Notes: a model not told the origin generated them from the letters alone. A DNA stretch of 64,000 nt from an uncultured Candidatus Saccharibacteria bacterium (GCA_964350645.1 CAYGJY010000002.1:161538-225537), one strand, 5' to 3'; counted from the first letter of the stretch, positions 10,662 through 62,859 are shown. Numbers and translations: made by a program.

Positions 10662-10702
10662 TATACAAAAAGGCCGGCGCTTTGCGCCGGCCTTTTTGTA
10701 TA
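10662..10702. terminator. 41-nt perfect palindromic bidirectional terminator (CCGGCGC-core family)
   Basis: tatacaaaaaggccggcgc ttt gcgccggcctttttgtata. Confidence 0.65.
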
Positions 10703-48734: not shown

Positions 48735-50804
48735 TTATTTTCGTTTCAGGGTTTTTGAAAGAATGATTGAGACGACGAAAATGAGGGCAGAAAGACCTAA
48801 AAACTTAAGATCAATCACACCACGTGAGATGCCGCCTGTTCGTAATTCTTCAACATCAAGTGAGGCTCCGACCGCCACAAAGGTAGCAATACCAAGTAGC
48901 GTACCGACGAAGTTTGCTAGGACAAACGGAATAAATTTTATCTTGAGAATTCCAGCGGCAAAACTGACTAGGTCAAAAGGAAGAAAAATGAGGCGCGTAA
49001 TCAGGACTGATTCAAAAGGATTGTCTCGCAGCGGTTGTATCCACGAACCGAGAGCTGTCTTTTCTAGCTTGAGATCACCACCAAAGAAGCGTCCAATGCC
49101 ATAGGCAGCAGCAGCTGAGATATTAGCGGCGATAATGGTCAGGAGCGTCCCAACCCAAAAGCCAAAGAAGACACCCGAGAGAATCGTCAGCGCAGTCCCG
49201 GGAAAAAAGACCAGTGGTCGCAGGGTGTACGCTGCGATGTAGATCAGTGCCCCCCATGCTGACAAGGCAATAAAATCAAAAATCACAAAAGCGGTTTCAA
49301 ATGCTGACAGGTTCTGGGCTTGTTGGTACATGTAGAGATAGTACAGACCAACTGCCCAGAGCGCCGCGACGATAACTTTCAAGGCGTGTTTTTTGACGAA
49401 GTGGGTAAGGTCGGTTTTGAGATGAGCGATTTGGGTCGCAAAGAAATAGTCACCGAGTTTTTTGATAATCAGTGAGTAGGTCGGGTAGGCGAAGATAGTG
49501 TTGCGCAGTTTCCACATCGAAATCTTTTGATCGATGGCGAGTGTGAACACGCTGAGGATTTCACCCGCTGCTGGACCAGCAATATGCGCACCAAGTACTC
49601 GGCCGCTGAGACGCTTTGCGATCACGATTGCGATGCCATCAGTAGTGTCTTCGGTTTTGGCCCGATCGTTGGCACTAAAAGGGGCTTCAATGCGAAAAAT
49701 GTTTTCTTCACCATAGTGCTCGAGTGCTTCCGTGTATGAAAGACCGACTTGCGCCACCTCGGGAGTGATATAGGTGACTTTTGGGACGGCTTTGTTGTCA
49801 CGCACTTTGAGAAGGCCTTTGCTGATTACCCGTGTGACCACTTGTCGAGCAATATTATCCGCGGTATGAGTGAACTTGAGACGCTGCGACACGTCCCCAA
49901 GGGCGTAGACTGATGCGTTGGTGGTGCGGTACTGGCTATCAACTTTGATACCGTAGGGTTCGCTCTGAATACCGGCGACTTCAAGACCATTTGGTAGGTT
50001 CGGTACTCGGCCAATCGCGACGAGCACTTTATCAAATTGGACTGACAATGATCCAGTCACTACTTTACCTTCTTTGCGGTCAAAAATCGCGACGCGATTT
50101 TTGACCTCGCTTAGATGCGCGTTCAGCTCAATCCTGATACCCAGTTCTTTAAACTTCCGCTGTACTATTGGACGGATAGCTGGGTCCTCCAGGCGGGCAA
50201 ACTCACTATCGATGGAGGCGATAGTGACGTGGCTACCGAGCATAGCAAACGCTTGACCAAGCTCCATGCCAATTGGTCCAGAGCCAATGACGAGTAGTTT
50301 CTCGGGGATACTTTTGAGGTCAAAGACGTTTTGGTTGGTGAGAACATCAGCGGGGTTGAGTCCGGGTACACTGATCATCCGTGGACTAGATCCAGTGGCG
50401 ATGATAGCTGTTTTAAAGGTGTAGGTAGCGTCGGCAACTTTAATAGTTTTTGTGCCAACAAATTCGGCTTCACCCATGATGACGTCGATGCCGATTTTCT
50501 CAAACACGTCTGGTGTCTCCTCGGCTAAGATCTCATCAATGATGTTACGAACGTAGGCAAACGCGTCGGTGCGAAAAGCTGCGCTTTTCACACCTTCACC
50601 CGCCACCTGCGTCGCCCGATGATACTCTCGCGCGTGATGCAAGAGTGCTTTGCTCGGCACACAGCCAGTGTTGGTACACTCACCGCCCATATGCTCACGT
50701 TCTATAAGAAGTACTTTCTTGCCGACTTTAGAGAAACCGACGGCTGAGGTAAGGCCGCCTGAGCCGGCCCCGATTACTATGACGTCGTAGTGTGTGTCTG
50801 ACAT
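48735..50804 (-). CDS. Fusion protein: class-I pyridine nucleotide-disulfide oxidoreductase (DLD/mercuric-reductase-like) plus a C-terminal DedA/TVP38 membrane domain
   Basis: GAGSGG FAD site, redox-active GGECTNTGCVPSK, second Rossmann GSGPIG; C-terminal about 220 aa with multiple TM helices and DedA-like segments. Confidence 0.7.
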   Translation of the reverse strand: MSDTHYDVIVIGAGSGGLTSAVGFSKVGKKVLLIEREHMGGECTNTGCVPSKALLHHAREYHRATQVAGEGVKSAAFRTDAFAYVRNIIDEILAEETPDVFEKIGIDVIMGEAEFVGTKTIKVADATYTFKTAIIATGSSPRMISVPGLNPADVLTNQNVFDLKSIPEKLLVIGSGPIGMELGQAFAMLGSHVTIASIDSEFARLEDPAIRPIVQRKFKELGIRIELNAHLSEVKNRVAIFDRKEGKVVTGSLSVQFDKVLVAIGRVPNLPNGLEVAGIQSEPYGIKVDSQYRTTNASVYALGDVSQRLKFTHTADNIARQVVTRVISKGLLKVRDNKAVPKVTYITPEVAQVGLSYTEALEHYGEENIFRIEAPFSANDRAKTEDTTDGIAIVIAKRLSGRVLGAHIAGPAAGEILSVFTLAIDQKISMWKLRNTIFAYPTYSLIIKKLGDYFFATQIAHLKTDLTHFVKKHALKVIVAALWAVGLYYLYMYQQAQNLSAFETAFVIFDFIALSAWGALIYIAAYTLRPLVFFPGTALTILSGVFFGFWVGTLLTIIAANISAAAAYGIGRFFGGDLKLEKTALGSWIQPLRDNPFESVLITRLIFLPFDLVSFAAGILKIKFIPFVLANFVGTLLGIATFVAVGASLDVEELRTGGISRGVIDLKFLGLSALIFVVSIILSKTLKRK

Positions 50805-50890
50805 GAAGGAGGAGTAAAGTTATGAATAGTTGCCTTTGATACGAGTATAGCAAGGAATTCTTTCAGATTTTGAGTATAAAAATAGGAAAA

Positions 50891-50920
50891 GCGCTCATCT
50901 AGGGAGGGAGATGAGCGCCA
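50891..50920 (-). terminator. Terminator for the minus-strand secreted-protein gene
   Basis: gcgctcatct agggaggg agatgagcgc, followed on the minus strand by ttttcctattttt. Confidence 0.5.
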
Positions 50921-51006
50921 ATCCGAATGCTTATTCGGTGCGCGACTCCTTTTCTAGTTGAGCGCTGGTGTGCGGCCCCTGCTGGTGCGGGACCGCGCGT
51001 TTTGGT

Positions 51007-51978
51007 TCATTCGGTCTCGGCGTCGATCAGGCCGATCCTGTTTGTCGCCCCGAGCTGCTCACGCAGGTCGAGAACGATTTTCAGGTAGGTCTCGACGAGC
51101 GGTAAGCCGCCTTCTTCTTTCCGACGCAGACCGAAGCGGACGTAGTAGGGGTCCGCGTTCCATCCAAGATGGGCTACTGTCCGCTCCCAACGGGAAGTGA
51201 CGGCACGGACGTCGTCGCTGGCCTGCTCCCAACGTGACTTCGCAAGGTCCCTTTCTTTTTCGGCGGCCTTAATAGCACGATCGCGAGCCATCTCATCGAC
51301 GTACTTGCCATCCCTTGCCACTTGGAGCGCCTCATTCCGCTTATCGTCTGAGGGGTATGTGGCCCGCGCCGCTGCACTGATTGCCTCCGATCGGGCTACT
51401 TCGTCGACATAGATAGCAGCTCCCGCTTCACCCACCTTGTCGATCTCGCTCCGGTACCGGCCATACAGTCGGGTTGAGCGATCTGCTGCCAGAAGCAGTT
51501 CGCTGTATGGCAAAGTGATTTCCGGCTTCATGCCGAGAGTGAGACTGTCCGCCAGAGTGGCGAGATGTTGGACGCAGGATGCGTATCTGTAGTTTTCCAG
51601 AAGGGCCATTTCGGACAGGACACTCTCCCGGTGTTGCTCCCAATAGTCCCAGAGGACAGTCGGGTCAGTCAGGTGATTGCGAGCTTCCTCGCGGAATTCA
51701 TCGATCACGAAATCGACGAATCCGCCCTCTTTGATCTGACGTTGTACGATGCCCTCAGCTTCGTTTGGGCCAGGGCATTGGAGAACGAGTTTTGCGATGA
51801 CCTCGTCCCCAATCATCCAGTTGATCAGCGGACCGATCGCTTTCGGCCAGGGCGATTCTGTTGAAACGGTCGCCGGGGCGTCCGACAGCAAAAAATCGAT
51901 CGTCTCAGCGTTTTGGTCCTGCGCGAAGGCAGTGCTGGCGGCGAATGCAACAACAGCTGCGGCAAGTGCTAATTTCAT
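51007..51978 (-). CDS. Secreted protein of unknown function encoded in a locally GC-rich segment
   Basis: Sec signal MKLALAAAVVAFAASTAFAQDQ; GC clearly above the neighbouring genes. Confidence 0.5.
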   Translation of the reverse strand: MKLALAAAVVAFAASTAFAQDQNAETIDFLLSDAPATVSTESPWPKAIGPLINWMIGDEVIAKLVLQCPGPNEAEGIVQRQIKEGGFVDFVIDEFREEARNHLTDPTVLWDYWEQHRESVLSEMALLENYRYASCVQHLATLADSLTLGMKPEITLPYSELLLAADRSTRLYGRYRSEIDKVGEAGAAIYVDEVARSEAISAAARATYPSDDKRNEALQVARDGKYVDEMARDRAIKAAEKERDLAKSRWEQASDDVRAVTSRWERTVAHLGWNADPYYVRFGLRRKEEGGLPLVETYLKIVLDLREQLGATNRIGLIDAETE

Positions 51979-52157
51979 GGCGTGTCTCCTAATAGCCAAT
52001 GATGAACCTAGTAGTCAAAAAACGTGTTGCGATAGAGAGGTGGTTCATTTGAACCTCTCTACCCTGCTAGTAAAATAGCATAAAAATAGACAAAAGTCAA
52101 TATACATGGCATAAAATAGAGGTTTTTGGTTATGGAGGTGGGGCGGGTGGTGTGGCG

Positions 52158-52196
52158 CTCCAGGCTGGCAAAAGCAACGCTTTTGCCAGCCTGGAG
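52158..52196. repeat. 39-nt perfect hairpin (18-bp stem, 3-nt loop) with no T-tract
   Basis: ctccaggctggcaaaagc aac gcttttgccagcctggag. Confidence 0.55.
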
Positions 52197-52361
52197 CAGC
52201 TGAAGACGGTTGCCATCGCTACTTAAATACCGTATGATAGCGCCGATTAGCCCAATTTGGGCTTGTTTCTATTTTGCGCTGAGTGCCCGGCGCCAAAGGC
52301 GCCGGGCTTCGCTGCATATAGGGAGAATTTATCATTAGTTATACATATATAAGTAAAGTTT

Positions 52362-54542
52362 ATGGCACGAGCATTTCCAATCGCAAAACTACGAAACTTC
52401 GGGATCGTAGCCCACGTTGACGCGGGTAAGACCACCACCTCTGAACGCATCCTTTTCTATACCGGGATGAGTCACAAAATCGGCGAGGTACACGACGGGG
52501 CAACCGTCACCGACTGGATGGAGCAAGAACGTGAGCGCGGTATCACCATCACCGCGGCGGCGATTTCTTGTAACTGGGCAAAAACCCTTGAGACAGATCG
52601 CAAGAACAAGGACAAGCAACACACCTTTAACATCATCGATACTCCAGGGCACATCGACTTTACCGCAGAGGTAAAGCGATCGATGCGTGTACTTGACGGT
52701 GCTGTCGTCGTATTCGACGGCGCGGCTGGTGTAGAGCCACAAACCGAAACCAACTGGGGCTACGCTGATGAAGCTGGTGTACCACGAATTTGTTTTGTAA
52801 ACAAAATGGACAAGCTGGGTGCTGATTACAACGCTTCAGTAAAGTCTATCGAAGAGCGACTCTCTAAAAAAGCTGTCCGGATTCAACTCCCGATCGGGGC
52901 AGAAGACGCACTCTCTGGTGTGGTTGATTTGATCACGATGAAGGCCTATCGGTTTGCTGGTGAGATGGGTATGGAGGTGACTGAAGAAGAGATTCCTGAG
53001 AATATGGTTGAAGACGCTAAGAAGTGGCGCGCTGAAATGATCGAACGCGTTGTTGAACACGACGACACGCTGATGGAAGCGTTTCTTGAAGGGACCGAGC
53101 CAACGCTTGAAGACCTCAAGAAGACCTTGCGAAAGGCGGTATTGGCTAACGAAATTTTTCCAGTCATGACTGGTTCAGCACTGAAGAACATCGGTGTGCA
53201 GCTCGTGCTTGACGCGGTAGTTGATTATCTGCCAGCACCAACTGACCTCCCACCAACGCACGGTCATGATCCAGATGATGAAGAAACTATTATCGAACGA
53301 CTGCCAACAGACGAAGACCCATTCAGCGCTCTTGTATTTAAACTACAGGACGACAAGTTCGTTGGGCAGCTGGCTTTCTTCCGGGTGTATTCAGGTACGG
53401 TGAAGTCTGGTTCATACATTTTGAACTCTTCAACGGGAAACAAGGAACGAATCGGACGAATTGTTCGTCTGATGGCTGACAAGCGAGAAGAAGTAGACGA
53501 AGTATATGCGGGCGAGATTGCGGCCGCTGTAGGGATCAAGGAAGTAAAGACATCGCACACTATTTGTGACGAAGCGAAGCCAATTGTACTCGAGCAAATT
53601 ACGTTCCCAGCCCCAGTCGTTGCTGTGCGTGTTGAGCCAAAGACTAAAAATGACCAAGAAAAAATGGGTGTAGCCTTAAAGCGCCTGTCAGATGAGGATC
53701 CGACGTTTGTCGTATCAACTGACGAAGAAACGCTCGAAACCATCATTGCTGGTATGGGTGAGTTGCACCTCGACATCATTGTTGATCGTATGAAACGAGA
53801 GTTTGGAGTAGAGGCCAACATTGGTCAACCACAAGTAGCGTACCGAGAAACAATCCAACGTGAAGCTGAAGCCGAGCATAAATACATTAAGCAGTCTGGA
53901 GGACGCGGACAGTACGGACACGTCAAGATTCGCATCAAGCCACTGGTGCCGCTCGCGAAAGATGAAAACGGGGAAGATGAGAAGGTTGCTAAGAACGTTA
54001 CTCGCGATGATCACTTTGAATTCATCAACAGCATTAAGGGAGGAGTCATTCCACAGGAATACATTCCAGCTGTCATGAAGGGAGCTAAAGAAGCGATGGG
54101 TCGCGGATTTGTCGCTGGCTATAAAATGGAAGATGTATCAGTTGAACTCTTTGATGGTTCATTCCACGATGTTGACTCGAGTGAAATCGCCTTTAAGTTG
54201 GCTGGTATTAACGCCTTTAAGGATGCAGCTGCAAAGGCGAGTCCGGTTATCCTTGAGCCAATCATGAAGGTTGAAGTACGAACACCAGATGAATACATGG
54301 GAGACATTCAAGGGAATATTTCATCGAAGCGCGGTCAGATTGAAGGCTCAGAAGAAATGGGAGGCAAGACAATCGTCAACGCCAAGGTGCCACTATCAGA
54401 AATGTTTGGTTACACCAACTCACTGCGTTCAATGACTCAAGGTCGTGCGAGTATGACGATGGAGTTTGATCACTATGAAGTGGTCCCACCAAACGTGGCT
54501 GAAGAGATTAAGAAGGCGAGAGGGGTGAAAGCAGAGGCATAA
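52362..54542 (+). CDS. fusA: Elongation factor G
   Basis: [15 protein letters not shown]...; full-length EF-G. Confidence 0.95.
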
Positions 54543-54553
54543 TCTCTGTGCTC

Positions 54554-54600
54554 TGAACATACAAAAGGCCGGCGCTTCGCGCCGGCCTTTTGTATGTTCA
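54554..54600. terminator. 47-nt perfect palindromic terminator between fusA and tuf
   Basis: tgaacatacaaaaggccggcgc ttc gcgccggccttttgtatgttca. Confidence 0.7.
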
Positions 54601-54826
54601 GTTTCTCGATCTAGCTTGCAAAAATCAGCCGGTTTGCTAAGATTGCCCCACCGCACCGGCATCTGGCTGGGTCGGAGTATACATATTGTTTGCTCTTTCA
54701 CACTCACGTGTACTAAGAGATAGCGTAACTGTTCTCGTGACGCTTTCCCTCAGTGCTCGTGCATGGCTTTTCATATGAAAAGCAGCCGTGTGCGGATTAT
54801 TAATTAACTAAATTTTATTTAGTATT

Positions 54827-56014
54827 ATGGCAGATTTTGATCGATCAAAGCCGCACATTAACGTAGGTACTATTGGTCACGTTGACCACGGTAAGACTAC
54901 GCTTACGGCTGCGATCCTAACAACCCTTAAAGCGAAGGGAAATGGCTATGACGCAAACGTCAAGGCAGTAGAAGATATTGATAAAGCGCCAGAAGAAAAG
55001 GCGCGCGGTATTACTATTTCACTTTCACATAGTGAGTACGAAAGTCCAAACCGACACTACGCACACATCGATGCGCCAGGTCACGCCGACTATATTAAGA
55101 ACATGATTACTGGTGCTGCCCAAATGGACGGTGCAGTTCTCGTAGTTGCAGCAACTGACGGAGCAATGCCACAAACTCGTGAGCATGTTCTGCTTGCAAA
55201 GCAGGTTGGTGTACCAAACATCATCGTGTTCCTCAACAAGTGTGACATGGTAGATGACGAAGAAATGCTTATGCTCGTTGAAGAAGAACTTCGTGAACTT
55301 CTCACTAAGAATGGATTCGACGGTGTCAACGCGCCAATCATTCACGGTTCTGGTTTGAAGGCACTTGAAGGTGACGCAGCCTACCAAGAGAAAGTGGTTG
55401 AACTCGTCGATGCGATGGATTCATATTTCCCACTGCCTGAGCGTGAACTCGACAAACCATTCCTTATGCCAGTTGAGGACATCTTCTCAATTGAAGGACG
55501 CGGTACAGTTGTAACTGGTCGTGTAGAACGAGGAGCAGTTAAGGTTGGTGAGGAAATTGAAATCGTCGGCATGAAGCCAACTGCTAAGACTACAGTTACT
55601 GGAGTTGAAATGTTCAACAAGCAACTAGATGCAGCGCAAGCTGGAGACAATGCTGGTATTCTCCTTCGTGGAACGAAGAAAGAAGACGTGCATCGTGGAC
55701 AGGTACTCGCGAAGTCAGGTTCTGTAACTCCACACACTGAGTTCGAAGCTGAGGTGTACGTACTTGGAAAAGAAGAAGGCGGACGACACACCCCATTCTT
55801 CTCAGGCTACAAACCACAGTTCTATATCCGAACCACTGACGTAACTGGAGATGTTACCCTCGCTGAAGGTACTGAAATGGTCATGCCAGGTGATACTGCA
55901 ACTTTCAAAGTGAAACTGGTTGCTCCAGTAGCTCTCGAAGACCAGCAAAACTTTGCGATTCGTGAAGGTGGTAAGACAGTTGGAGCTGGTGTTGTAACTA
56001 AGATCGTTGCGTAA
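54827..56014 (+). CDS. tuf: Elongation factor Tu
   Basis: [14 protein letters not shown]...DCPGHADY...NKCDMV. Confidence 0.95.
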
Positions 56015-56037
56015 GCAATCGCTAACTACACACTATT

Positions 56038-56394
56038 ATGGCTACAAACACATCATCTAAATCAAAGAAAGACGCAGCGGCTGGCGAAATCCAGAAGCTT
56101 CGTATTCGTGTTCGCGCTTATGAGCACAAGATTCTTGACGCTTCAGTCAAGCAGATTACTGACACAGCCGCTCGCTTTGATGCGACTGTTGTTGGACCAA
56201 TTCCGCTACCAACTGAAATCAAGAAGTACACAGTAAACCGTTCAACGTTCGTCCATAAGGATGCGCGAGAACAATTCGAGATGCGCATGCACAAACGTGT
56301 CATCGACATCATGAATCCGAGCGGCAAAGTCATTGAGGCTTTGACCAACCTGTCACTGCCCTCTGGCGTGAACATTGATGTAAAGATGATCTAA
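56038..56394 (+). CDS. rpsJ: 30S ribosomal protein S10
   Basis: KLRIRVRAYEHKILD...GPIPLPT; conserved tuf-rpsJ order. Confidence 0.9.
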   Translation: MATNTSSKSKKDAAAGEIQKLRIRVRAYEHKILDASVKQITDTAARFDATVVGPIPLPTEIKKYTVNRSTFVHKDAREQFEMRMHKRVIDIMNPSGKVIEALTNLSLPSGVNIDVKMI

Positions 56395-56405
56395 GTGTTG
56401 CTATA

Positions 56406-56442
56406 ACAAAAGGCCGGCCCCGTAGGGGCCGGCCTTTTGTGT
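56406..56442. terminator. 37-nt palindromic terminator, identical in sequence to the one at 62166-62202
   Basis: acaaaaggccggcccc gta ggggccggccttttgtgt. Confidence 0.7.
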
Positions 56443-56460
56443 GGTTACTTCACCAGCAAT

Positions 56461-56853
56461 TTACCCAGCGATAAAGACATCTGAGTAGAGAGTAGTGCCA
56501 TCGAATTCGCAGGTAACCAACTTCCACATGTTGTTGGTATTGTATGCAATTGATTCACAAAGTGTACGAGCCTCGGCTTCTGATGCAACTTCGTTTTGAA
56601 GAGTAGTGCCGCCTTCAATCGTGATAGTTACAGTTTTGAGAGCAATCATTTCTTCGCTAGTTTCAAACTGAATACCAGCTACTTCACCAGCTGGACTCAT
56701 ACTTTGTTTGGCAGCATCAAGATTGAGCTGTAAAACTGCTAGGTCAGCTTTGGCTGCGTGTAACTCAGCGAGCAAGTGCTCAACAGTAGACGCCTGGGCT
56801 AACGGAGCTACTAAAAAAGTAGCTAGGGCAAAGATTGAGAAGATAAATTTCAT
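56461..56853 (-). CDS. Small secreted protein
   Basis: Signal peptide MKFIFSIFALATFLVAPLAQA. Confidence 0.45.
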   Translation of the reverse strand: MKFIFSIFALATFLVAPLAQASTVEHLLAELHAAKADLAVLQLNLDAAKQSMSPAGEVAGIQFETSEEMIALKTVTITIEGGTTLQNEVASEAEARTLCESIAYNTNNMWKLVTCEFDGTTLYSDVFIAG

Positions 56854-57332
56854 ACTTTATGTATTAAGATTGAATAGATATTGAAACTAAACTGTAATAA
56901 GTATACTGATTAATTAACTTTTGTCAAGTATTAGCGACTCAAAAAGTAAAGAAAAAACTCGTCACCTGAGGGCTACGAGTTTTTTCTTTACCTCCAACGT
57001 ACAGGTGCCTGTGGACACAAGTGCGTTAGTTTATGTGTGATGGGAAATGCAGTAGCACATTCCCGTGCACTACTGCCTAGTCTAAACAGCGGCTGGCTGC
57101 CTAAACAGATGTGGATCGTGTAGAGCACATCCTACTTACTATGACGCACCAGGTAGCAAAATCTTTCAGAAGTAGTGGCAGCTAGCGCACCCTAGTCAAA
57201 ACTGACTACCTCACTCCCGCACTGCCCCAGCCAAGCCGACCCATTACGAGATCGCTCGCCCGCTAGCTTTGGACAGAGGGGTTTCAAAACTTCTCGTTAT
57301 TATAGTAAGGCAGTCTCAACAACCTAATATTT

Positions 57333-57350
57333 ACTATCATATATGATAGT
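57333..57350. promoter_or_regulatory. Operator-like perfect palindrome ACTATCATATATGATAGT (copy 1), 15 nt after the yerC-like stop
   Basis: 18-bp perfect dyad. Confidence 0.5.
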
Positions 57351-57364
57351 GAGATTACATTGGA

Positions 57365-57781
57365 TTATTTTGATCCGGGAAAGAGTAAGAAGTGCAATGG
57401 ATATTTTTTCTTTAACGCTGCTAGTCCAAATGGATTAGCTTTGATATCTCGCTGGTTTTGTCTCTTTTGTAATTCAGACTCAAGTCCTTTGATGGCGTCC
57501 CGATATCCTGGCATTTGTTTCCGTAGCCATTTCTCGACCTTAACAATTGTATTGGGTCCAACTTCTAACTGTTCACCAATGTCTGCATGAGTATGACCAG
57601 AGAGCAATAGCCTCGCAATCCATATGCGCCTTCCCAGCATGATTCGCTCACTTGGAGTTAAGAGTTCTTTTAAAAATGCTTTAGTAGCATCTCTGCCTTT
57701 CACTGCTCCGGCTGCAGTATAAAGCATATCAAGAGTCTCCATTTGTTGCTGGTTAGTCAGCTGATCTAATTTTTTCTTCAT
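57365..57781 (-). CDS. TrpR-related YerC/YecD-family DNA-binding protein
   Basis: LTPSERIMLGRRIWIARLLLSGHTHADIGEQLEVGPNTIVKV, a Trp_repressor-like HTH. Confidence 0.7.
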   Translation of the reverse strand: MKKKLDQLTNQQQMETLDMLYTAAGAVKGRDATKAFLKELLTPSERIMLGRRIWIARLLLSGHTHADIGEQLEVGPNTIVKVEKWLRKQMPGYRDAIKGLESELQKRQNQRDIKANPFGLAALKKKYPLHFLLFPGSK

Positions 57782-57789
57782 ATATAAAT

Positions 57790-57807
57790 ACTATCATATA
57801 TAATAGT
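57790..57807. promoter_or_regulatory. Operator copy 2 (ACTATCATATATAATAGT, one mismatch), 9 bp upstream of the regulator start codon
   Basis: 17 of 18 identity to copy 1; overlaps the likely promoter. Confidence 0.5.
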
Positions 57808-57856
57808 AAGTTCGTAAGTTACTTTGTGCCATGAAGTGAAAAAATAAAGATTTTTC

Positions 57857-57874
57857 ACTATCATATATGATAGT
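57857..57874. promoter_or_regulatory. Operator copy 3 (perfect ACTATCATATATGATAGT)
   Basis: Perfect dyad about 76 bp upstream of the regulator start. Confidence 0.5.
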
Positions 57875-57906
57875 GAAATAGAGGATGTTGGAATGTTCAA
57901 ATTTAC

Positions 57907-57955
57907 AAATGAAAACACCCCACCGCAATGAGTTATCCCTCCTTTCTTCCGCGCT
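57907..57955. repeat. 49-bp direct repeat, copy A
   Basis: aaatgaaaacaccccaccgcaatgagttatccctcctttcttccgcgct. Confidence 0.6.
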
Positions 57956-57967
57956 CACGATGTACAC

Positions 57968-58978
57968 CTAATCTTGATGAGTAAGTCTTTCAGCTAACGT
58001 AGGTATTTTACTGAAATCAAATTCAGGATTATGTGTCTGTATATAGTCAATAGTGGCGTCAAGTGTTTCTATCATTATTTCTTCGGCTAATGGCTCCCGT
58101 TCTGCTTCCGGTGCTGCATACAGACCCTTAATTTTTTCATTGATGGCTGGTAGGTGTACGCTATTCAGTTCTACTGCACCAGAATCTGTTAATACATCGT
58201 AGTATGTTTGCAGCCTTTCGCTTGCCGACAGATCTTTGTGTGAGTGATATAGACTGCCAAGGAGTAGAAAAGGCGCTAGCTGATAGTAAGTGTTAAGTCC
58301 ATTGCTAATAAAGGCTGCTCGGAAATTCTGCTGCGTCTCTAGATCGGGACTGAATAAGTGCAGTCCGTTACTGGCTGTGAACACTTCTGATGGGATATCT
58401 TTTTTTGCAACAGCGCACAGTAATAACAGATTCGCAACCGCTGAGGTGGTGTGTTCTTGGTCGCCACAGACACCGTGCATAGCTTCGTGGCAAATTAATT
58501 GGAGAAACTCGATCGCTGGGATATCGCCTCGCATCAAAAGTAGGTTCGCCCCCTCAGCGTCAGCTGACTCGTGCATGAATCTACCTAGGAGTGATTTTGG
58601 ATTATCTAATGGCCCAAAGGTCTGCACTGAAGTTTCTTTATCAAACACTACCATAGCAGTAGTTGTGGACATGCCGTCAAATGCTTCTGGAATAGCTTCC
58701 TGGAGTCCATTTTTTCCAGAAACTTGTGAAAAGGCCCATTGTAAAAAATTGACAAATTCTCGCTGCTCTCTTTCTGTCAGGTCTGCCACTATTGTTTCGG
58801 TGTCTTCGAGAAGTGTAAGTAGTTCAGTGGCATCCCAGTCGCCCTCAATTGTTTCAAATTGATGTGCTATGTAGCCAGCTGACTCCTGTGCTTTCAATAT
58901 TTCAGGCAAAGCTGCAGTCCCACCAAGTGCAACGGCACTAGTGATAAATTCCCTTCTGTTTAGTAGTGGTTTTTCCAT
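57968..58978 (-). CDS. Tat-signal protein with an HExxH motif (putative secreted zinc-dependent hydrolase)
   Basis: N-terminus MEKPLLNRREFITSAVALGGTAALP (RRxFI twin-arginine-like); LICHEAMHGVCGDQEH. Confidence 0.5.
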   Translation of the reverse strand: MEKPLLNRREFITSAVALGGTAALPEILKAQESAGYIAHQFETIEGDWDATELLTLLEDTETIVADLTEREQREFVNFLQWAFSQVSGKNGLQEAIPEAFDGMSTTTAMVVFDKETSVQTFGPLDNPKSLLGRFMHESADAEGANLLLMRGDIPAIEFLQLICHEAMHGVCGDQEHTTSAVANLLLLCAVAKKDIPSEVFTASNGLHLFSPDLETQQNFRAAFISNGLNTYYQLAPFLLLGSLYHSHKDLSASERLQTYYDVLTDSGAVELNSVHLPAINEKIKGLYAAPEAEREPLAEEIMIETLDATIDYIQTHNPEFDFSKIPTLAERLTHQD

Positions 58979-59008
58979 ATAACATCAATAATATCGTATC
59001 GATCATAA

Positions 59009-59057
59009 AAATGAAAACACCCCACCGCAATGAGTTATTCCTCCTTTCTTCCGCGCT
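59009..59057. repeat. 49-bp direct repeat, copy B (48 of 49 identical); here it is extended into a complete hairpin
   Basis: aaatgaaaacaccccaccgcaatgagttattcctcctttcttccgcgct, followed by gtgcggtgggggtgttttc. Confidence 0.6.
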
Positions 59058-59074
59058 GTGCGGTGGGGGTGTTT

Positions 59075-59347
59075 TCATTTGGTGGGGATATTTGTGTTCC
59101 TGCTGAGTATCAGCCAGGCGGCGTTACTGCCGCCAATTGGGCATTCTAGTACTCCGATACATCCCAGTTCTTCAGCTGAGACAAGCATTTCAGCTTGCGT
59201 GCCACGTTTAAGTTTTTGATGTTCTCCGTTTTTAAGCAGTGCAAAGAATGCGTTGACGAAGTTGAAAGTTTCTTTATTCAATTCCGTGTGCAGCCTGCAC
59301 CCAAGTTCTGCAAGGATGAGCATGACTGTATTGTGCGGTATCTCCAT
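59075..59347 (-). CDS. Hypothetical small protein (90 aa)
   Basis: ORF in the same orientation as the three other insert genes. Confidence 0.3.
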   Translation of the reverse strand: MEIPHNTVMLILAELGCRLHTELNKETFNFVNAFFALLKNGEHQKLKRGTQAEMLVSAEELGCIGVLECPIGGSNAAWLILSRNTNIPTK

Positions 59348-59475
59348 CGGAGCCTCCTATTTTGCATGTGAACCATAAACCCTTGCAAAGCGCAACAAAA
59401 TCCGTATACTACCGGGAGCTTACTAAAGACCTATGTTCGGTGATGGCTCGCTTGCGAGCTTGAGAACCAATGGGC

Positions 59476-59533
59476 AGAAATCGCGCCGTTTTGCGTGCGA
59501 GCATTCTGCTCGCGTCAAAACGGCGCGATTTCT
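59476..59533. promoter_or_regulatory. Very stable nested hairpin upstream of rplC (18-bp outer stem plus 7-bp inner stem) with no T-tract; candidate leader or regulatory RNA structure
   Basis: agaaatcgcgccgttttg cgtgcgagcattctgctcgcgt caaaacggcgcgatttct. Confidence 0.4.
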
Positions 59534-59575
59534 CATTTGAGGTCTAATAAGCAAATTATTAGATAAGGTTACAGA

Positions 59576-60196
59576 ATGAAATTCATTTTAGGAACCAAGG
59601 CAGGGATGACCCAAGTTTTTGACGAACAAGGAGTCGCTTTCCCAGTAACGCTATTGCGTGTGCCGAAGACCATCGTAACGGCTGTGAAAACAGTTGAGAA
59701 AGATGGTTACGAGGCGGTGCAGGTAGCAGCTGGTGAACAAAAAGAGTCTCGTGTTGCGAAAGCAACTCGAATCGGACTCGGCGGCGCGTACCAATTCGTG
59801 CAAGAATTTCGTCCCCGCAAAACCCAAAGTGAGTCAATCGACGGGATCGAAAAAGGGGCTGAGTTTGACGCTTCAGTTTTTACTGCAGGCGACACGGTTA
59901 CCGTTTCAGCAATCTCGAAAGGAAAAGGCTTCCAAGGGGTAGTAAAGCGTCATAACTTTGCTGGAGACAAGGCGTCACACGGACGCAAACACTCTGGACG
60001 TTCACCAGGTTCAATTGGAGCAACTGGACCAGCTCGAGTTTTCAAAGGAAAGAAGATGGCTGGACGAATGGGAACTGATCGGGTAACGGTCAAGAATCTT
60101 ATGGTTGTCCAAGTTAATCCAGAAGAAAATATTCTGCTTATTAAAGGAGCAGTCCCCGGTCGAAAAGGAACATTAGTAGAGGTTCGTAGCGCATAA
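59576..60196 (+). CDS. rplC: 50S ribosomal protein L3
   Basis: MKFILGTKAGMTQVFDEQG... Confidence 0.95.
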   Translation: MKFILGTKAGMTQVFDEQGVAFPVTLLRVPKTIVTAVKTVEKDGYEAVQVAAGEQKESRVAKATRIGLGGAYQFVQEFRPRKTQSESIDGIEKGAEFDASVFTAGDTVTVSAISKGKGFQGVVKRHNFAGDKASHGRKHSGRSPGSIGATGPARVFKGKKMAGRMGTDRVTVKNLMVVQVNPEENILLIKGAVPGRKGTLVEVRSA

Positions 60197-60198
60197 GT

Positions 60199-60882
60199 AT
60201 GGAAACAACAGTATTCACACAAGCTGGTAAAGAATCAGGCAAAGTCACTCTACCCGAAACGGTATTTGGTGTCGCTTGGAATCCTGATCTAGTTCATGAG
60301 GTCGTTGTTTCTATGACAAGCAACGCACGGACAAGTACTGCTCACACCAAAGATCGAAGTGAAGTACGCGGTGGTGGACGAAAGCCATGGCGACAGAAGG
60401 GAACTGGTCGCGCGCGACATGGTTCTCGACGTTCACCGATTTGGACTGGTGGAGGAGTTACGTTCGGCCCTCGAAACGAAAAAGATTATTCAAAGAAGAT
60501 CAATAAGAAAGTGCGAGCGAAAGCTCTCGCGAGTACATTGTCAAAGAAGCACGCTGACGGGGAAGTTCTTTTCCTCGATGCACTGAACTTTGATGGGCCA
60601 AAAACCGCTGAAGCAAAAGTTGCTATTAAAGCAATTGCAACTGGTAGCAAGCGAGATGATATGGCAACAAAGCGCAAGAACGCTGCTTTGATTGTTCTTT
60701 CAGAACGAAATGAAGCGGTTGAGAAAAGCTTCCAAAACTTTGGCAACGTCCTCGTTGCTCAAGTAAAAGATATCAACCCGGTTGATCTTCTTACCTACAA
60801 GTATGTTGTGGTAACAGAACCAGCAAAGGCCCTAGAAACCCTAGTGTCACGTATTGGTACTACAGCTAAGTCAGAAAAATAA
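60199..60882 (+). CDS. rplD: 50S ribosomal protein L4
   Basis: Conserved L4 core; rplC-rplD order. Confidence 0.9.
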   Translation: METTVFTQAGKESGKVTLPETVFGVAWNPDLVHEVVVSMTSNARTSTAHTKDRSEVRGGGRKPWRQKGTGRARHGSRRSPIWTGGGVTFGPRNEKDYSKKINKKVRAKALASTLSKKHADGEVLFLDALNFDGPKTAEAKVAIKAIATGSKRDDMATKRKNAALIVLSERNEAVEKSFQNFGNVLVAQVKDINPVDLLTYKYVVVTEPAKALETLVSRIGTTAKSEK

Positions 60883-60883
60883 C

Positions 60884-61270
60884 ATGCCTTTATTTGGAAA
60901 AAAGAAAGACGCTGACAGCGCTGCCCCGAAAGAGACTGCAGAGGTAACTAAGAAAGTTGCTCCAAAGAGCACTGCTTTGGTTACTGATCGCAACCTTTCA
61001 TCAGTCATCATCAAACCACGGATAACTGAAAAGGCAGTGAAGCAAGGTGAACGCAATGTGTATACATTTGTCGTTCGCCAAGATGCGACTAAGTTTGACA
61101 TCCGTGACGCCATCAAGGCGCACTATGGAGTCACTCCAGTCAAAGTGCATACCGTGACCCAGACACCCCGACAAGTTATGTCGCGGAGTAAAGGTCGCAA
61201 AATTGCGCAAAAGGGTTTGAAGAAAGCCTATGTGTACTTACAAGCCGGTGACTCAATTGAGCTCGCATAA
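60884..61270 (+). CDS. rplW: 50S ribosomal protein L23 with an N-terminal extension
   Basis: VIIKPRITEKAV...YTFVV... Confidence 0.85.
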   Translation: MPLFGKKKDADSAAPKETAEVTKKVAPKSTALVTDRNLSSVIIKPRITEKAVKQGERNVYTFVVRQDATKFDIRDAIKAHYGVTPVKVHTVTQTPRQVMSRSKGRKIAQKGLKKAYVYLQAGDSIELA

Positions 61271-61284
61271 TCTAACTCAGATAT

Positions 61285-62148
61285 ATGAAAAAACTCAAAC
61301 CAACATCACCAGGCCGACGCGGGATGACCGTGATCGAGTACAAGAAGAAGCTCACGACAAACCAAAGTAACCCACATAAGTCACTTACGAAAGGTAAGCG
61401 CAGTACTGGTGGACGCAACTCACAAGGTCGCATCACTACCTGGTACCGTGGAGCTGGTAACAAGCGAAAGTATCGTGCAGTTGACTTTAAGTTCGACAAG
61501 AAAGATATTCCCGCTAAGATCGAAACAATCGAGTACGATCCATACCGATCAGGTTTTATTGCTCTTGTGTTGTATGCCGATGGTGAACGTCGGTACATCC
61601 TGGTGCCACAAGGTATGAAAGAAGGAGATACCTTCATTGTGTCTGAAACAGCGAAGACAACGACTGGTAACCGTTTGCCACTCGCAAAAATCCCACTCGG
61701 TACTTTTGTGTACGGGATTGAAACGAAGCCAAACGGCGGTGCGCGCATTGCTCGCTCAGCCGGTAACTACGCTGAAGTGGTAGCACATGACGCGGGGTAC
61801 ACCCAAGTCAAGATGCCATCAACTGAAATTCGTAAGATTCTCTCAAGCTGTTGGGCAACCATTGGTGAAGTATCAAACGAAGAACACCGATTGGTAACGA
61901 TTGGTAAAGCGGGGCGCGCTCGGCATATGGGACTTCGACCGAAGACTCGTGGAACTGCCAAGAACCCAGTTGACCACCCTCATGGAGGTGGAGAGCAAAA
62001 ATCCCCACGTGGTCATCGTCGGCAGCGAACCAAGCAAGGTCGCCCGACTGGTAAAGGTCAAAAGACCCGATCACCGAAGAAGTATTCCAACAAGCTTATC
62101 GTCCAACGACGAAAGCCAGGAAAATTGATGCAAGGTAACAAGAAGTAG
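61285..62148 (+). CDS. rplB: 50S ribosomal protein L2
   Basis: MKKLKPTSPGRRG...GGGEQK... Confidence 0.95.
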   Translation: MKKLKPTSPGRRGMTVIEYKKKLTTNQSNPHKSLTKGKRSTGGRNSQGRITTWYRGAGNKRKYRAVDFKFDKKDIPAKIETIEYDPYRSGFIALVLYADGERRYILVPQGMKEGDTFIVSETAKTTTGNRLPLAKIPLGTFVYGIETKPNGGARIARSAGNYAEVVAHDAGYTQVKMPSTEIRKILSSCWATIGEVSNEEHRLVTIGKAGRARHMGLRPKTRGTAKNPVDHPHGGGEQKSPRGHRRQRTKQGRPTGKGQKTRSPKKYSNKLIVQRRKPGKLMQGNKK

Positions 62149-62165
62149 CCAAGCAAAAAATAAAC

Positions 62166-62202
62166 ACAAAAGGCCGGCCCCGTAGGGGCCGGCCTTTTGT
62201 GT
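62166..62202. terminator. 37-nt palindromic terminator identical to 56406-56442
   Basis: acaaaaggccggcccc gta ggggccggccttttgtgt. Confidence 0.7.
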
Positions 62203-62211
62203 TTAATTTAT

Positions 62212-62532
62212 TCAAACCCCGGGCTTTCTGGTTCGTTCTTTGAATTCAAAGAGTTTGAGTTTTTTGTCTTCCTGTAGTTGCTGGAAAATTTGTGGAGCGG
62301 GTGAGGTTGTATGAACAGCGACTTTCTGGGCTGACTGGCCGGAAATGAGAAGCTCCATACCAGCGGTGGTATAGGTGGCCGTAACATGGCGCGCGCCGCC
62401 CCGGCGGCGCGCGCCCGTACGAATTTCACCGGGAGCGATCATTTTTACTCCGGGAAGCTTTTTTAGAACCTGCACCACTAAAGCAGCGGTCTCAGTTAGA
62501 GTAGTATGTTCGTTTCCTCGGGGTTTTGGCAT
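62212..62532 (-). CDS. Questionable 106-aa ORF inside the rplB-rpsS insert. No SD and no recognisable family. It contains a 28-nt all-GC palindrome read as RRRGGAR.
   Basis: ORF length only. Confidence 0.2.
   Translation of the reverse strand: MPKPRGNEHTTLTETAALVVQVLKKLPGVKMIAPGEIRTGARRRGGARHVTATYTTAGMELLISGQSAQKVAVHTTSPAPQIFQQLQEDKKLKLFEFKERTRKPGV
62388..62415. repeat. 28-nt 100%-GC perfect palindrome (12-bp stem, tetraloop)
   Basis: ggcgcgcgccgc cccg gcggcgcgcgcc. Confidence 0.6.
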
Positions 62533-62577
62533 GAGTGAACCTTACCACACTTCTGTATCACGCAGTCTAGAAAACCA

Positions 62578-62612
62578 TTGACACTCCTATATATTTCGCG
62601 TAGTATTTGCGC
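62578..62612 (+). promoter_or_regulatory. Promoter-like TTGACA, 17-nt spacer, TAGTAT, pointing toward rpsS
   Basis: Consensus -35 with an acceptable -10 and a 17-nt spacer. Confidence 0.4.
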
Positions 62613-62859
62613 GTTCCCAACCTCAGTGTTCTAAAAGCCTGGCAGCCGATAGAACACAAACCAAATAAGAAATCCCAGGTAGTTGGCCGTTAACCAGCCC
62701 TGGATCAAAGATTTCGGACAGAAAGCACAATAGTGGTGCTTTTTATTAGTTAATGGAGTTCAGCGAAACGTTAGAGTGCGTGTTCCAGGAATTCGCCCTA
62801 GGAATGGGGCGAATTCGGAACTAAATTCTGAATAGTCGTTACACTCCTTTCATCATTTA

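Follow-up and report, generated by a model that had tools for sequence, protein, structure and literature searches.

The S10 cluster is a textbook case of operon conservation and a phylogenetic marker block. In the window analysed here, a 64-kb stretch of DNA from a Paceibacteria (CPR) bacterium with a tiny genome (Patescibacteria), rpsJ (S10; 56038–56394, plus strand; Pfam Ribosomal_S10 E 1.6e-32, ORF coordinates) and rplC (L3; 59576–60196, plus strand; ORF and Pfam), which opens an rplC-rplD-rplW-rplB unit, are separated by 3.18 kb that contain four ORFs on the minus strand. The first-pass annotation had described this separation, at the positions where we find it, and had read it as an acquired, self-regulated four-gene module placed inside an otherwise conserved operon. 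This raises the question of whether an intact operon was invaded here, or whether the two genes have been parted for longer.

The rpsJ–rplC junction across the lineage

Synteny in relatives, proposed earlier as a check, was examined and speaks against invasion of an intact operon: the split is lineage-wide, with a conserved promoter and leader before rplC. The rpsJ|rplC gap exceeds 300 bp in 25/25 loci of the nearest-clade species (hereafter leader-clade loci; median 2490, range 348–6846 bp) and also in 27 of the 38 wider relatives. The same threshold is passed at rplB|rpsS (L2|S19) in 14/14 leader-clade loci and in 18 of 25 other relatives. Tight spacing is found at tuf|S10, L3|L4, L4|L23, L23|L2 and S19|L22 (medians –41 to 65 bp), and the cluster of the relatives is broken at exactly two junctions, namely rpsJ|rplC and rplB|rpsS. 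These slots hold pirin, glycosyltransferases, SDR, a DDE transposase, RT+bAvd and many hypotheticals; the cargo is different in almost every species and scarcely any of it is common between species. The rplB|rpsS gap of the window carries a DUF2103 gene (62212–62532, minus strand; Pfam E 4.9e-06), which occupies the same place and strand in 12 relatives (tblastn, 57–70% identity). Most relatives show strong hairpins 3' of both rpsJ and rplB.

Upstream of rplC, a predicted promoter TTGCAA-16-TATACT (59383–59410, plus strand) matches the consensus and is kept in relatives, where the alignment consensus reads TTGC...GTATACT. It is followed by a structured leader RNA, GAGAACCAAUGGGCA (59459–59558, plus strand), identified by fold, alignment and covariation, in which an 11-bp outer and a 5-bp inner helix (59476–59533) precede a U-rich tail. 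Across 26 sequences, 94.6% of cells are paired and 11/16 pairs carry compensatory changes, with 0/500 shuffles and slid controls of 24–50%. A covariance model of the leader gave one match per locus, each time just upstream of rplC, and no Rfam family was matched at E <= 1 other than a chance Tombus_IRE match. Judged from the alignment, the rplC leader is a covariation-supported, conserved structured 5' UTR of the type expected for an autogenous ribosomal-protein leader. Expression of rplC would restart behind this terminator-like leader. The analogy of L4 and the E. coli S10 leader suggests that it probably lets a ribosomal protein control its own synthesis. The binding partner, e.g. L4, is only a guess by that analogy, because a crude motif search for 23S rRNA mimicry gave nothing obvious.

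In E. coli, the S10 operon leader mediates attenuation through L4 (PMC3616713), and this L4-responsive leader combines attenuation with translational repression. The rplC leader is similar in being a structured 5' leader, with a hairpin and a U-rich tail, in front of genes that include rplD (PMC3616713). Unlike its E. coli counterpart, which it resembles neither in sequence nor by Rfam, it precedes rplC in place of rpsJ, and its L4 binding is putative. The operon differs as well, as rpsJ here goes with tuf in a unit closed by a predicted terminator, and a second break follows rplB.

Because rplC is served by a separate, conserved promoter and by a structured leader RNA with covariation support, the split between rpsJ and rplC is, on comparative grounds, ancestral to the lineage. 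We therefore consider it likely that the S10 cluster of this lineage is not one operon and that the 3.18 kb are the current, layered filling of a slot. In the arrangement that we propose, each unit would end at a strong palindromic terminator and then restart from its own promoter. The spaces at rpsJ|rplC and rplB|rpsS would tolerate any content, with rapid turnover of accessory DNA, and the antisense orientation together with the flanking terminators would shield ribosomal-gene expression from the cargo. The exchange mechanism would most likely be allelic replacement by homologous recombination in the conserved flanks. Divergence between strains is uneven, with 0.35% in the non-coding stretch, 0.9% in the right flank and about 2.8% in the left, a pattern that fits recombination but equally selection.

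Flexible genomic islets and chromosomal hotspots occur between conserved core genes. The slots described here share with them a fixed site, conserved flanks and a cargo that varies by species and even between strains that are ~97–99% identical. Unlike these islets, the slots are small (0.3–7 kb), mostly lack integrases and sit between ribosomal-protein genes of the S10 cluster, with a conserved regulatory RNA as the right flank. A comparison can also be drawn with archaea, cyanobacteria and plastids, in which the S10 gene goes with the str/tuf genes and not with rplC. As in that layout, rpsJ lies 23 nt behind tuf, as the final gene of a tuf-rpsJ unit, and apart from rplC; the rplC unit nevertheless remains the next ribosomal unit downstream, with a hypervariable cargo slot in between. 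To our knowledge, such a slot has not been described for the archaeal, cyanobacterial or plastid arrangements.

Layers of the present filling

All promoters and terminators of the region are consensus or fold predictions, and the counts of promoter-like sites equal the shuffle expectation. The tuf-rpsJ unit ends at a 37-nt perfect palindrome (56406–56442), a predicted bidirectional intrinsic terminator based on its repeat and fold (RNA fold –38.6 kcal/mol, z –6.3). An identical copy follows rplB (62166–62202), so that two copies stand against 0 expected by chance, and in a sibling strain the loop of the 56406–56442 copy is flipped. The palindrome had been taken for the left boundary of an insertion. 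Its identity to the copy after rplB holds; as identical rpsJ and rplB terminators were found in no relative, it is a terminator duplicated within the species and not a boundary.

The sibling strain, with ~97–99% identity and identical S10 and L3 proteins, allows the content to be divided. Its contigs L085, L086, L087 and L092 contain 79 unrelated nucleotides in place of a 2225-bp block (57147–59371), which holds the TrpR-like gene, the HExxH protein gene and a 90-aa ORF. The codon scores of these three strain-specific ORFs (0.06–0.22) compare with a genome mean of 0.34 +/- 0.10. Thus, of the proposed acquired module, it stands that part of the content was recently gained or lost, but not that the four genes form a single unit: the fourth, sec130, occurs in the sibling strain without the other three. 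The suggested co-occurrence search, once carried out, found the set of four proteins in no other place, two of the four being orphans. By this comparison, the "cassette" is a composite of a resident part, with sec130 and non-coding DNA, and the strain-specific block.

The resident part begins with sec130 (56461–56853, minus strand), an ORF whose 130-aa product carries a Sec-type signal peptide (by eye). Its codon score of 0.44 is typical for the genome, the protein is common to the sibling strain (95–96% aa identity), and no more than 3 proteins, from one run series, make up its 90% cluster. A promoter-like site for sec130, TTGACA-16-TATACT (56900–56927, minus strand), agrees with the consensus at 11/12 positions. 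Next to it, a 17-bp hairpin followed by UUUUU (56946–56991, minus strand; –31.5 kcal/mol, z –5.2 on the minus strand) is predicted to terminate transcripts from the TrpR-like gene or the non-coding region. A bidirectional terminator of the cassette had been claimed; the hairpin is present, but since only the minus strand has a U-tract it is effectively a minus-strand terminator, and the bidirectional terminators of the region are the 37-nt palindromes. The ORF-free region noted before is also there (56854–57364), and neither a tRNA nor an Rfam match was found in it. Within it, a G+C-richer, strongly structured stretch (56992–57332, minus strand; fold z –5.55) is a candidate ncRNA or long 3' UTR. 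Its portion 56992–57146 is common to the sibling strain and near-invariant (1 substitution/289 nt vs ~2.8% in neighbouring genes). The older layer would then consist of the fast-evolving, secreted sec130 protein, expressed from a separate promoter, and of the structured non-coding RNA region up to the minus-strand terminator.

The younger layer would be the 2.2-kb block, made of a self-contained regulator unit, in which operators O2 and O1 precede the TrpR-like gene and operator O3 follows it, and of two orphan ORFs. The larger ORF (57968–58978, minus strand; codon score 0.22) encodes a 336-aa orphan protein with a HEAMH motif of the HExxH type sought in zincin metalloproteases and a Tat-like RREF N-terminus, where N-R-R-E-F-I-T precedes a hydrophobic stretch (twin-arginine consensus S/T-R-R-x-F-L-K; Pfam TAT_signal E 0.064, 13.7 vs a cut-off of 22.7 bits). 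It has no significant Pfam, NCBIfam or PDB match, and its AF2 model is unusable (pLDDT 48.6). The 90-aa orphan ORF (59075–59347, minus strand) is of uncertain coding status. Its codon score of 0.06 is the top of the six frames, yet under the genome range. A perfect AGGAGG-5 nt-ATG stands at its start, in a genome with few Shine-Dalgarno sites (3/53). Searches of 5.8 billion clusters and 1.84 billion representatives gave no homologue of either protein.

Direct repeats had been noted as 49 bp; they are present and measure 52 nt at 96% identity. Copy A (57904–57955) lies just 3' of the HExxH gene, with no partner arm and no stable fold (z +1.0). Copy B (59006–59057) forms with its partner arm a hairpin of ~22 bp followed by U5 (59006–59081, minus strand; –36 kcal/mol, z –4.7), which is the predicted terminator of the 90-aa ORF and whose 3' part holds a promoter-like site for the HExxH gene. 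As this gene is framed by the 52-nt duplication, the block appears to have been built stepwise. These repeats are the only ones in the block; transposase or integrase domains, terminal inverted repeats and a target-site duplication were not found (junctions 57146/57147 and 59371/59372), and PADLOC and PHROG searches for anti-phage defence and prophage cargo gave no match better than E 0.01.

The TrpR-like gene and its predicted operators

The third gene of the block encodes a 138-aa TrpR/HisR(YerC)-like HTH protein with a C-terminal extension (57365–57781, minus strand). Its assignment to Pfam Trp_repressor (PF01371; E 4.5e-12, 46.3 bits vs a cut-off of 27) is clear of the threshold, and it scores under the NCBIfam YerC (TIGR02531) cut-off (25.3 vs 42.2 bits). 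The closest solved structures are of the HisR type (3FRW, 3G1C and 3KOR; E 4e-5 to 7e-4). With 990 homologues at 52–86% identity, it belongs to a large conserved family, the members of which stand single in other contexts and never near S10 or L3. A TrpR-like gene of the sibling strain was found neither in the contigs nor in the homologue searches, which is odd for so conserved a family and may reflect only fragmentary assemblies.

Three operator palindromes had been reported, and all three are present. The 18-bp palindrome ACTATCATATATGATAGT has 3 copies in 64 kb, all around this gene, and 0/100 shuffles gave three matches. The predicted operator O3 (57333–57350) lies 15 nt past the stop codon, O1 (57790–57807; 1 mismatch) ends 9 nt before the ATG, and O2 (57857–57874) lies within a 26-bp perfect palindrome. 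An O1-type site is found at –9 from the ATG in all close homologues, and at this position O1 should cover part of the promoter or the transcription start of the gene. In 49/63 unique homologous loci the same palindromic 14-mer occurs both upstream and downstream. The operator core follows a residue of the recognition helix, as Asn goes with TCATATATGA in 21/22, Asp with TGATATATCA in 32/32 and Ala with CCATATATGG in 3/3; expressed as core by residue, N corresponds to CATATATG, D to GATATATC and A to CCATATATGG. Self-regulation, which had also been proposed, is well supported at the sequence level for the TrpR-like gene, because the palindrome that brackets it, here and in homologous loci, co-varies with the recognition-helix residue.

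We thus picture a TrpR-like dimer that would bind the 18-bp palindromes, with O1 overlapping its own promoter and probably leading to negative autoregulation. The downstream O3 could loop to the upstream sites or act as a roadblock or terminator. In many loci a long G+C-ended hairpin carries the downstream operator at its top, and the operator could then be simply a terminator.

TrpR-family proteins bind palindromes of ~20 bp and many of them autoregulate, and the HisR/YerC operator consensus cacTTTAnnnnnnTAAAgtg precedes histidine biosynthesis or transport genes (PMC9413887). The present gene agrees with HisR and TrpR repressors in the Trp_repressor domain and in a palindromic operator of ~18–20 bp before its own gene (PMC9413887). 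It differs in length (138 aa with a conserved C-terminal extension vs <100 aa), in its operator (ACTATCATATATGATAGT vs cacTTTAnnnnnnTAAAgtg), which is found only around the regulator gene itself, in having no his or trp genes nearby, and in the second identical site directly past the stop codon in most loci. With regard to that second operator, we know of no report of one directly after the stop codon for HisR or TrpR.

Alternative readings and implications

Unrelated DNA might have come between rpsJ and rplC through a chimeric assembly, either at 59550 or at the 37-nt palindrome; the second copy of the palindrome 5.7 kb away and the short-read contigs that break there would be compatible with this. 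We regard such an artefact as refuted and its probability as negligible: Logan contigs L089, L002, L001 and L093 tile 55045–62195, every internal junction is bridged by overlapping contigs from separate sequencing runs at 100% identity, and the sibling-strain contigs L085 and L086 run unbroken from tuf through rpsJ and the palindrome to sec130, and into rplC-rplD. The assembly error that the first-pass annotation had kept as an alternative is therefore excluded. Horizontal acquisition of one self-regulated four-gene module by an intact operon, with the TrpR-like protein controlling the HExxH protein, the 90-aa ORF and sec130 as a set, is largely refuted by synteny and appears improbable to us, as the split predates it: every close relative has a divided operon and its own rplC promoter and leader. 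The common minus-strand orientation with operators between the ORFs, the 2.2 kb missing from the sibling strain and the codon scores below the genome mean agree with it, and the HExxH gene, without a terminator of its own, could read into the TrpR-like gene. Yet the sibling strain keeps sec130 alone, the four proteins co-occur nowhere else, the TrpR-like homologues are single-gene units with the same bracketing operators in unrelated contexts, and the palindromes flank the regulator gene only, with none at the promoters of sec130 or the 90-aa ORF.

Another possibility is a small integrated mobile cassette with attL/attR-like repeats and a recombinase encoded elsewhere, comprising either the whole strain-specific block or its 1.1-kb HExxH segment alone. 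The repeats frame the orphan HExxH gene exactly and have no further copy in the window or in 180 loci, the imperfect long hairpin of copy B is loosely reminiscent of folded recombination sites, and the same slot of relatives holds a DDE transposase and a retroelement. We give this possibility little weight, as the block lacks the enzymes and junction features of such an element, the short allele consists of 79 unrelated bases and is not an empty site, no allele without the HExxH segment alone was found, and duplication of a terminator or promoter segment would explain the repeats just as well. The four-gene "cassette" is on our reading an ordinary composite slot filling.

In a broader and tentative view, Paceibacteria would use the two fixed breaks of the S10 cluster as dedicated exchange sites, with a new leader RNA and the TrpR-like device travelling along. 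Recombination within the ultra-conserved ribosomal flanks may exchange strain-specific genes at these sites. The rplC leader may be a new autogenous attenuator unrelated to the L4 leader of E. coli, and the TrpR-like gene may represent a CPR-wide operator-gene-operator unit in which a single helix residue sets DNA specificity; both devices may be previously undescribed. Movement of this unit among rRNA, RNA-polymerase and r-protein neighbourhoods hints at a semi-autonomous, possibly mobile, growth-related regulator.

Two precise breaks that serve a major bacterial lineage as fast-turnover cargo slots bear on models of operon evolution. They matter for binning and for synteny-based quality control of CPR genomes, and they are useful for locating strain-specific genes in episymbionts. 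We know of no ribosomal-protein autoregulation in the phylum of the host, for which the conserved rplC leader provides a new candidate that can be tested. Organisms of this type have very few transcription factors, and the operator-gene-operator TrpR-like unit, with its predicted one-residue recognition code, offers a simple and experimentally tractable regulator.

Occupation and integrity of the rpsJ-rplC interval

In the window, tuf (54827-56014) is followed by rpsJ (56038-56394), and rplC (59576-60196) lies 3181 bases past rpsJ and precedes rplD, rplW and rplB. The interval carries four minus-strand ORFs: sec130 (56461-56853), encoding a 130-aa protein with a classical signal peptide; a TrpR-like ORF of 138 aa (57365-57781; Pfam Trp_repressor, E 4.5e-12); a 336-aa ORF with an NRREFIT N-terminus and a HEAMH motif (57968-58978), here called the HExxH protein; and orf90, of 90 aa (59075-59347). 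The observation made in the first-pass annotation, that four minus-strand genes and a set of repeats split rpsJ from rplC, was confirmed, and all the repeats named in it are present. A 37-nt palindrome (56406-56442) has an identical second copy at 62166-62202. An 18-bp palindrome, ACTATCATATATGATAGT, occurs at 57333, 57790 (one mismatch) and 57857, with no further copy in the 64 kb, and a direct repeat of 52 nt lies on both sides of the 336-aa gene. Among the cargo proteins, searches of Pfam, NCBIfam, PHROG and PADLOC gave significant family matches for the TrpR domain and DUF2103 only.

To judge the integrity of the locus, we used contigs recovered via exact-protein look-ups, which are short and were independently assembled from a series of sequencing runs. 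Four of these contigs (L089, L002, L001 and L093) together cover 55045-62195 at 100% identity and overlap at every internal junction, which excludes the assembly error that had been considered as a possible source of the arrangement.

A variable slot between predicted ribosomal transcription units

Its S10 protein places the organism in the Paceibacteria (Parcubacteria, CPR). All junctions of the S10 cluster were measured in 80 species-level relatives, with a closest group of 25-27 species. A gap of more than 300 bp between rpsJ and rplC was found in 25/25 of the closest species (median 2.5 kb, range 0.35-6.8 kb) and in 27 of the 38 remaining relatives. The same holds between rplB and rpsS (14/14 and 18/25, respectively), whereas both groups have tight junctions at tuf|rpsJ, rplC|rplD, rplD|rplW, rplW|rplB and rpsS|rplV. 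The rplB|rpsS gap keeps a resident antisense DUF2103 gene (here 62212-62532, minus strand; same place in 12 relatives). In the case of rpsJ|rplC, the cargo is unrelated from species to species: pirins, glycosyltransferases, a dehydrogenase and large beta-helix proteins occur, besides many hypotheticals; nothing in the relatives' slots resembles the four proteins of this locus. One relative carries a DDE transposase and another a reverse transcriptase with a bAvd-like protein (L037 and L052 are among the examples), indicating that mobile DNA enters the slot in some species. The latter pair is the signature of a diversity-generating retroelement. An enrichment of the slots in secreted or membrane proteins was looked for and not found (28% vs 25%, p 0.66).

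The start of the rplC unit is likewise conserved. Across about 20 species, the 200 bases upstream of rplC are 70-85% conserved, independently of what lies further upstream, and their alignment contains a predicted promoter, TTGC...(17)...TATACT, and an invariant segment, GA(A/G)ACCAAUGGGCA. Together, this conserved start and the lineage-wide gap show that the split is ancestral and argue against the earlier proposal that a cassette had invaded an intact operon. A shared arrangement in close relatives had been named as evidence against that proposal; the gap is indeed common to them, but the genes within it differ, so that this expectation is borne out in spirit.

A sibling strain (L085, L086, L087 and L092), whose S10 and L3 proteins are identical and whose flanks have 97-99% nucleotide identity, gives a finer view. 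Its contigs match 55100-57146, continue with 79 unrelated bases and resume the match at 59372. Both strains thus share sec130 and the left part of the ORF-free stretch, while 57147-59371 (2225 bp; TrpR-like gene, HExxH gene and orf90) is strain-specific, and the idea of a single module is not supported. The junctions of this block show neither a target duplication nor inverted repeats, and the short allele of the sibling is a replacement rather than an empty site. Other copies of its 79-nt filler and of the 52-nt repeat were searched for and none was found; nor did the searches find a TrpR-like gene of the sibling's own, perhaps owing to fragmentary assemblies. Divergence between the strains is about 2.8% in tuf/rpsJ, 2.7% in sec130 (5-6 amino-acid changes) and 0.9% to the right of the strain-specific block. 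Judged from these sequence comparisons, the earlier interpretation is supported in part, and the locus is best described as a layered filling, the present one, of a variable slot that exists throughout the lineage between ribosomal units predicted to be transcribed independently.

The codon score of the HExxH gene is 0.22, that of the TrpR-like gene 0.19 and that of orf90 0.06, whereas resident genes score 0.34 +/- 0.10 and sec130 scores 0.44. Shine-Dalgarno sites are scarce in this genome (3 of the 53 long ORFs of the window); orf90 has a perfect AGGAGG at ideal spacing (59349-59362), and AAGGAGG lies inside both copies of the 52-nt repeat (57925-57935 and 59027-59037), possibly a trace of foreign origin. 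The predicted terminator of orf90 consists of repeat copy B and a partner arm, while copy A, after the HExxH gene, has neither arm nor fold, suggesting an addition of the HExxH segment through duplication or recombination at this terminator. No homologues of orf90 were found in the searched resources, and none of the HExxH protein in a 5.8-billion-cluster search, a full HMMER scan of 1.84 billion representatives or the PDB. As the AF2 model of the latter is also too poor for a fold search (pLDDT 48.6), a secreted metalloprotease is a guess at the level of the motif.

Hairpins after rpsJ and rplB are strong in most relatives. Identical terminators at both sites were rejected as a lineage trait, being confined to this species among the relatives compared. 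Here they belong to a palindromic terminator family with arms AAAGGCCGGC/GCCGGCCTTT, found at 10669-10695, 54564-54590 (after fusA), 56409-56437 and 62169-62197. The rpsJ terminator of the sibling strain has its loop in the opposite orientation (GTA to TAC), a change that points to gene conversion or to inversion of the hairpin.

Some neighboring features were also recorded. Upstream of rpsS (62533-62859) there is a promoter-like site, TTGACA-17-TAGTAT, and a leader of roughly 250 nt with hairpins. Between fusA and tuf (54548-54640) lie a predicted terminator and a predicted promoter, TTGCAA-17-TAAGAT. In place of rpsL-rpsG, minus-strand genes (48735-52362) lie upstream of fusA, indicating that the str operon, too, is broken up. 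Typical Paceibacteria S10 clusters (L004, L017) occur in MAGs named Patiriisocius sp. and Bacteriovorax sp., probably as binning contaminants.

Candidate RNAs of the interval

The rplC leader (59459-59558, plus strand) folds into a two-tier hairpin at 59476-59533, followed by a U-rich tract. In relatives (L004-L046) it lies directly 5' of rplC and is confined to one Paceibacteria sub-clade. The fold has strong covariation support: of the alignment cells, 94.6% are paired, with compensatory changes in 11 of 16 pairs; these values were reached by 0 of 500 shuffles, and slid controls gave 24-50%. A covariance model found a single match per locus, always directly 5' of rplC, at 27 loci (26 related ones and the window), of which one lay outside the training set and one was weak (L014, E 0.085). 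In 1.08 Mb the model had no other match on the same strand, and its weak matches on the reverse strand overlap these hairpins. The leader has no Rfam family match, and mimicry of 23S rRNA was looked for with none obvious. We regard this element as a candidate for a new ribosomal-protein leader or attenuator. By analogy with the E. coli S10 leader, which is under L4 control (PMC3616713), it probably acts as an autogenous attenuator.

On the minus strand, 57332-56940 folds far beyond shuffles (z -5.55) and has a terminal hairpin with a U5 tract. This ORF-free region contains no tRNA and no Rfam match even under lax filters, and blastn and tblastx against 180 related loci returned the operator palindrome only. 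Its shared non-coding part, 56858-57146, has one inter-strain change in 289 bases, vs about 2.8% in adjoining genes. The ORF-free stretch (56992-57332, minus strand) may represent an ncRNA or a long 3'UTR.

The TrpR-like regulator and its predicted operators

About 1000 homologues of the TrpR-like protein were found at 52-86% identity; every one comes from a Patescibacteria-type source, and the label YerC is frequent among them. Bacillus YerC is HisR, a TrpR-family histidine repressor that binds a 20-bp palindrome (PMC9413887). An orthologue of HisR was rejected, as the protein scores below the YerC model cut-off, is 40 residues longer, has another operator and has no his genes nearby. Contexts of the homologues vary (beside the 3' end of 23S-5S rRNA, between dnaG and rpoC, elsewhere), and 0 of 80 loci lie near S10 or L3.

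These genes are nearly always bracketed by the same palindrome (57333-57874 in the window; loci L095-L181), whose upstream copy ends about 9 nt 5' of the start codon and whose downstream copy lies directly past the stop codon. An identical palindromic 14-mer was found on both sides in 49 of 63 unique loci. The operator core changes between lineages together with one residue that starts the recognition helix: G-x-N-T goes with TCATATATGA (21/22 loci; palindrome core CATATATG), G-x-D-T with TGATATATCA (32/32; GATATATC) and G-R-A-T with CCATATATGG (3/3; likewise the palindrome core), counts that are inflated by shared ancestry. Asn-type and Asp-type proteins cover the same 52-100% identity range. 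Altogether, these comparisons strongly support binding of the bracketing palindromes by the protein, and the earlier description of the locus as self-regulated is thereby supported for the TrpR-like gene. Terminal inverted repeats around the unit were also considered; the 36-nt match consists of the palindrome core plus about 10/16 flanking matches and was judged to be chance. In many cases the downstream palindrome continues into a long G+C-ended hairpin, so it may have a second role, whether in termination, in looping or as a roadblock to convergent transcription.

We consider noteworthy the two fixed S10-cluster breakpoints in Paceibacteria, the candidate rplC leader RNA, and the operator-gene-operator architecture with its putative recognition code in the CPR TrpR-like family; nothing on these, or on S10 operon splitting in CPR, was found in the literature, which is incompletely searchable. 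In several loci (L116, L127 and L130 among them) TrpR-like genes adjoin rRNA operons. Two 23S rRNA genes of related Paceibacteria (L095, 7079-10585; L097, 7241-10786) measure about 3.5 kb against a 2.9-kb model and thus carry insertions; gene callers place small ORFs inside them.
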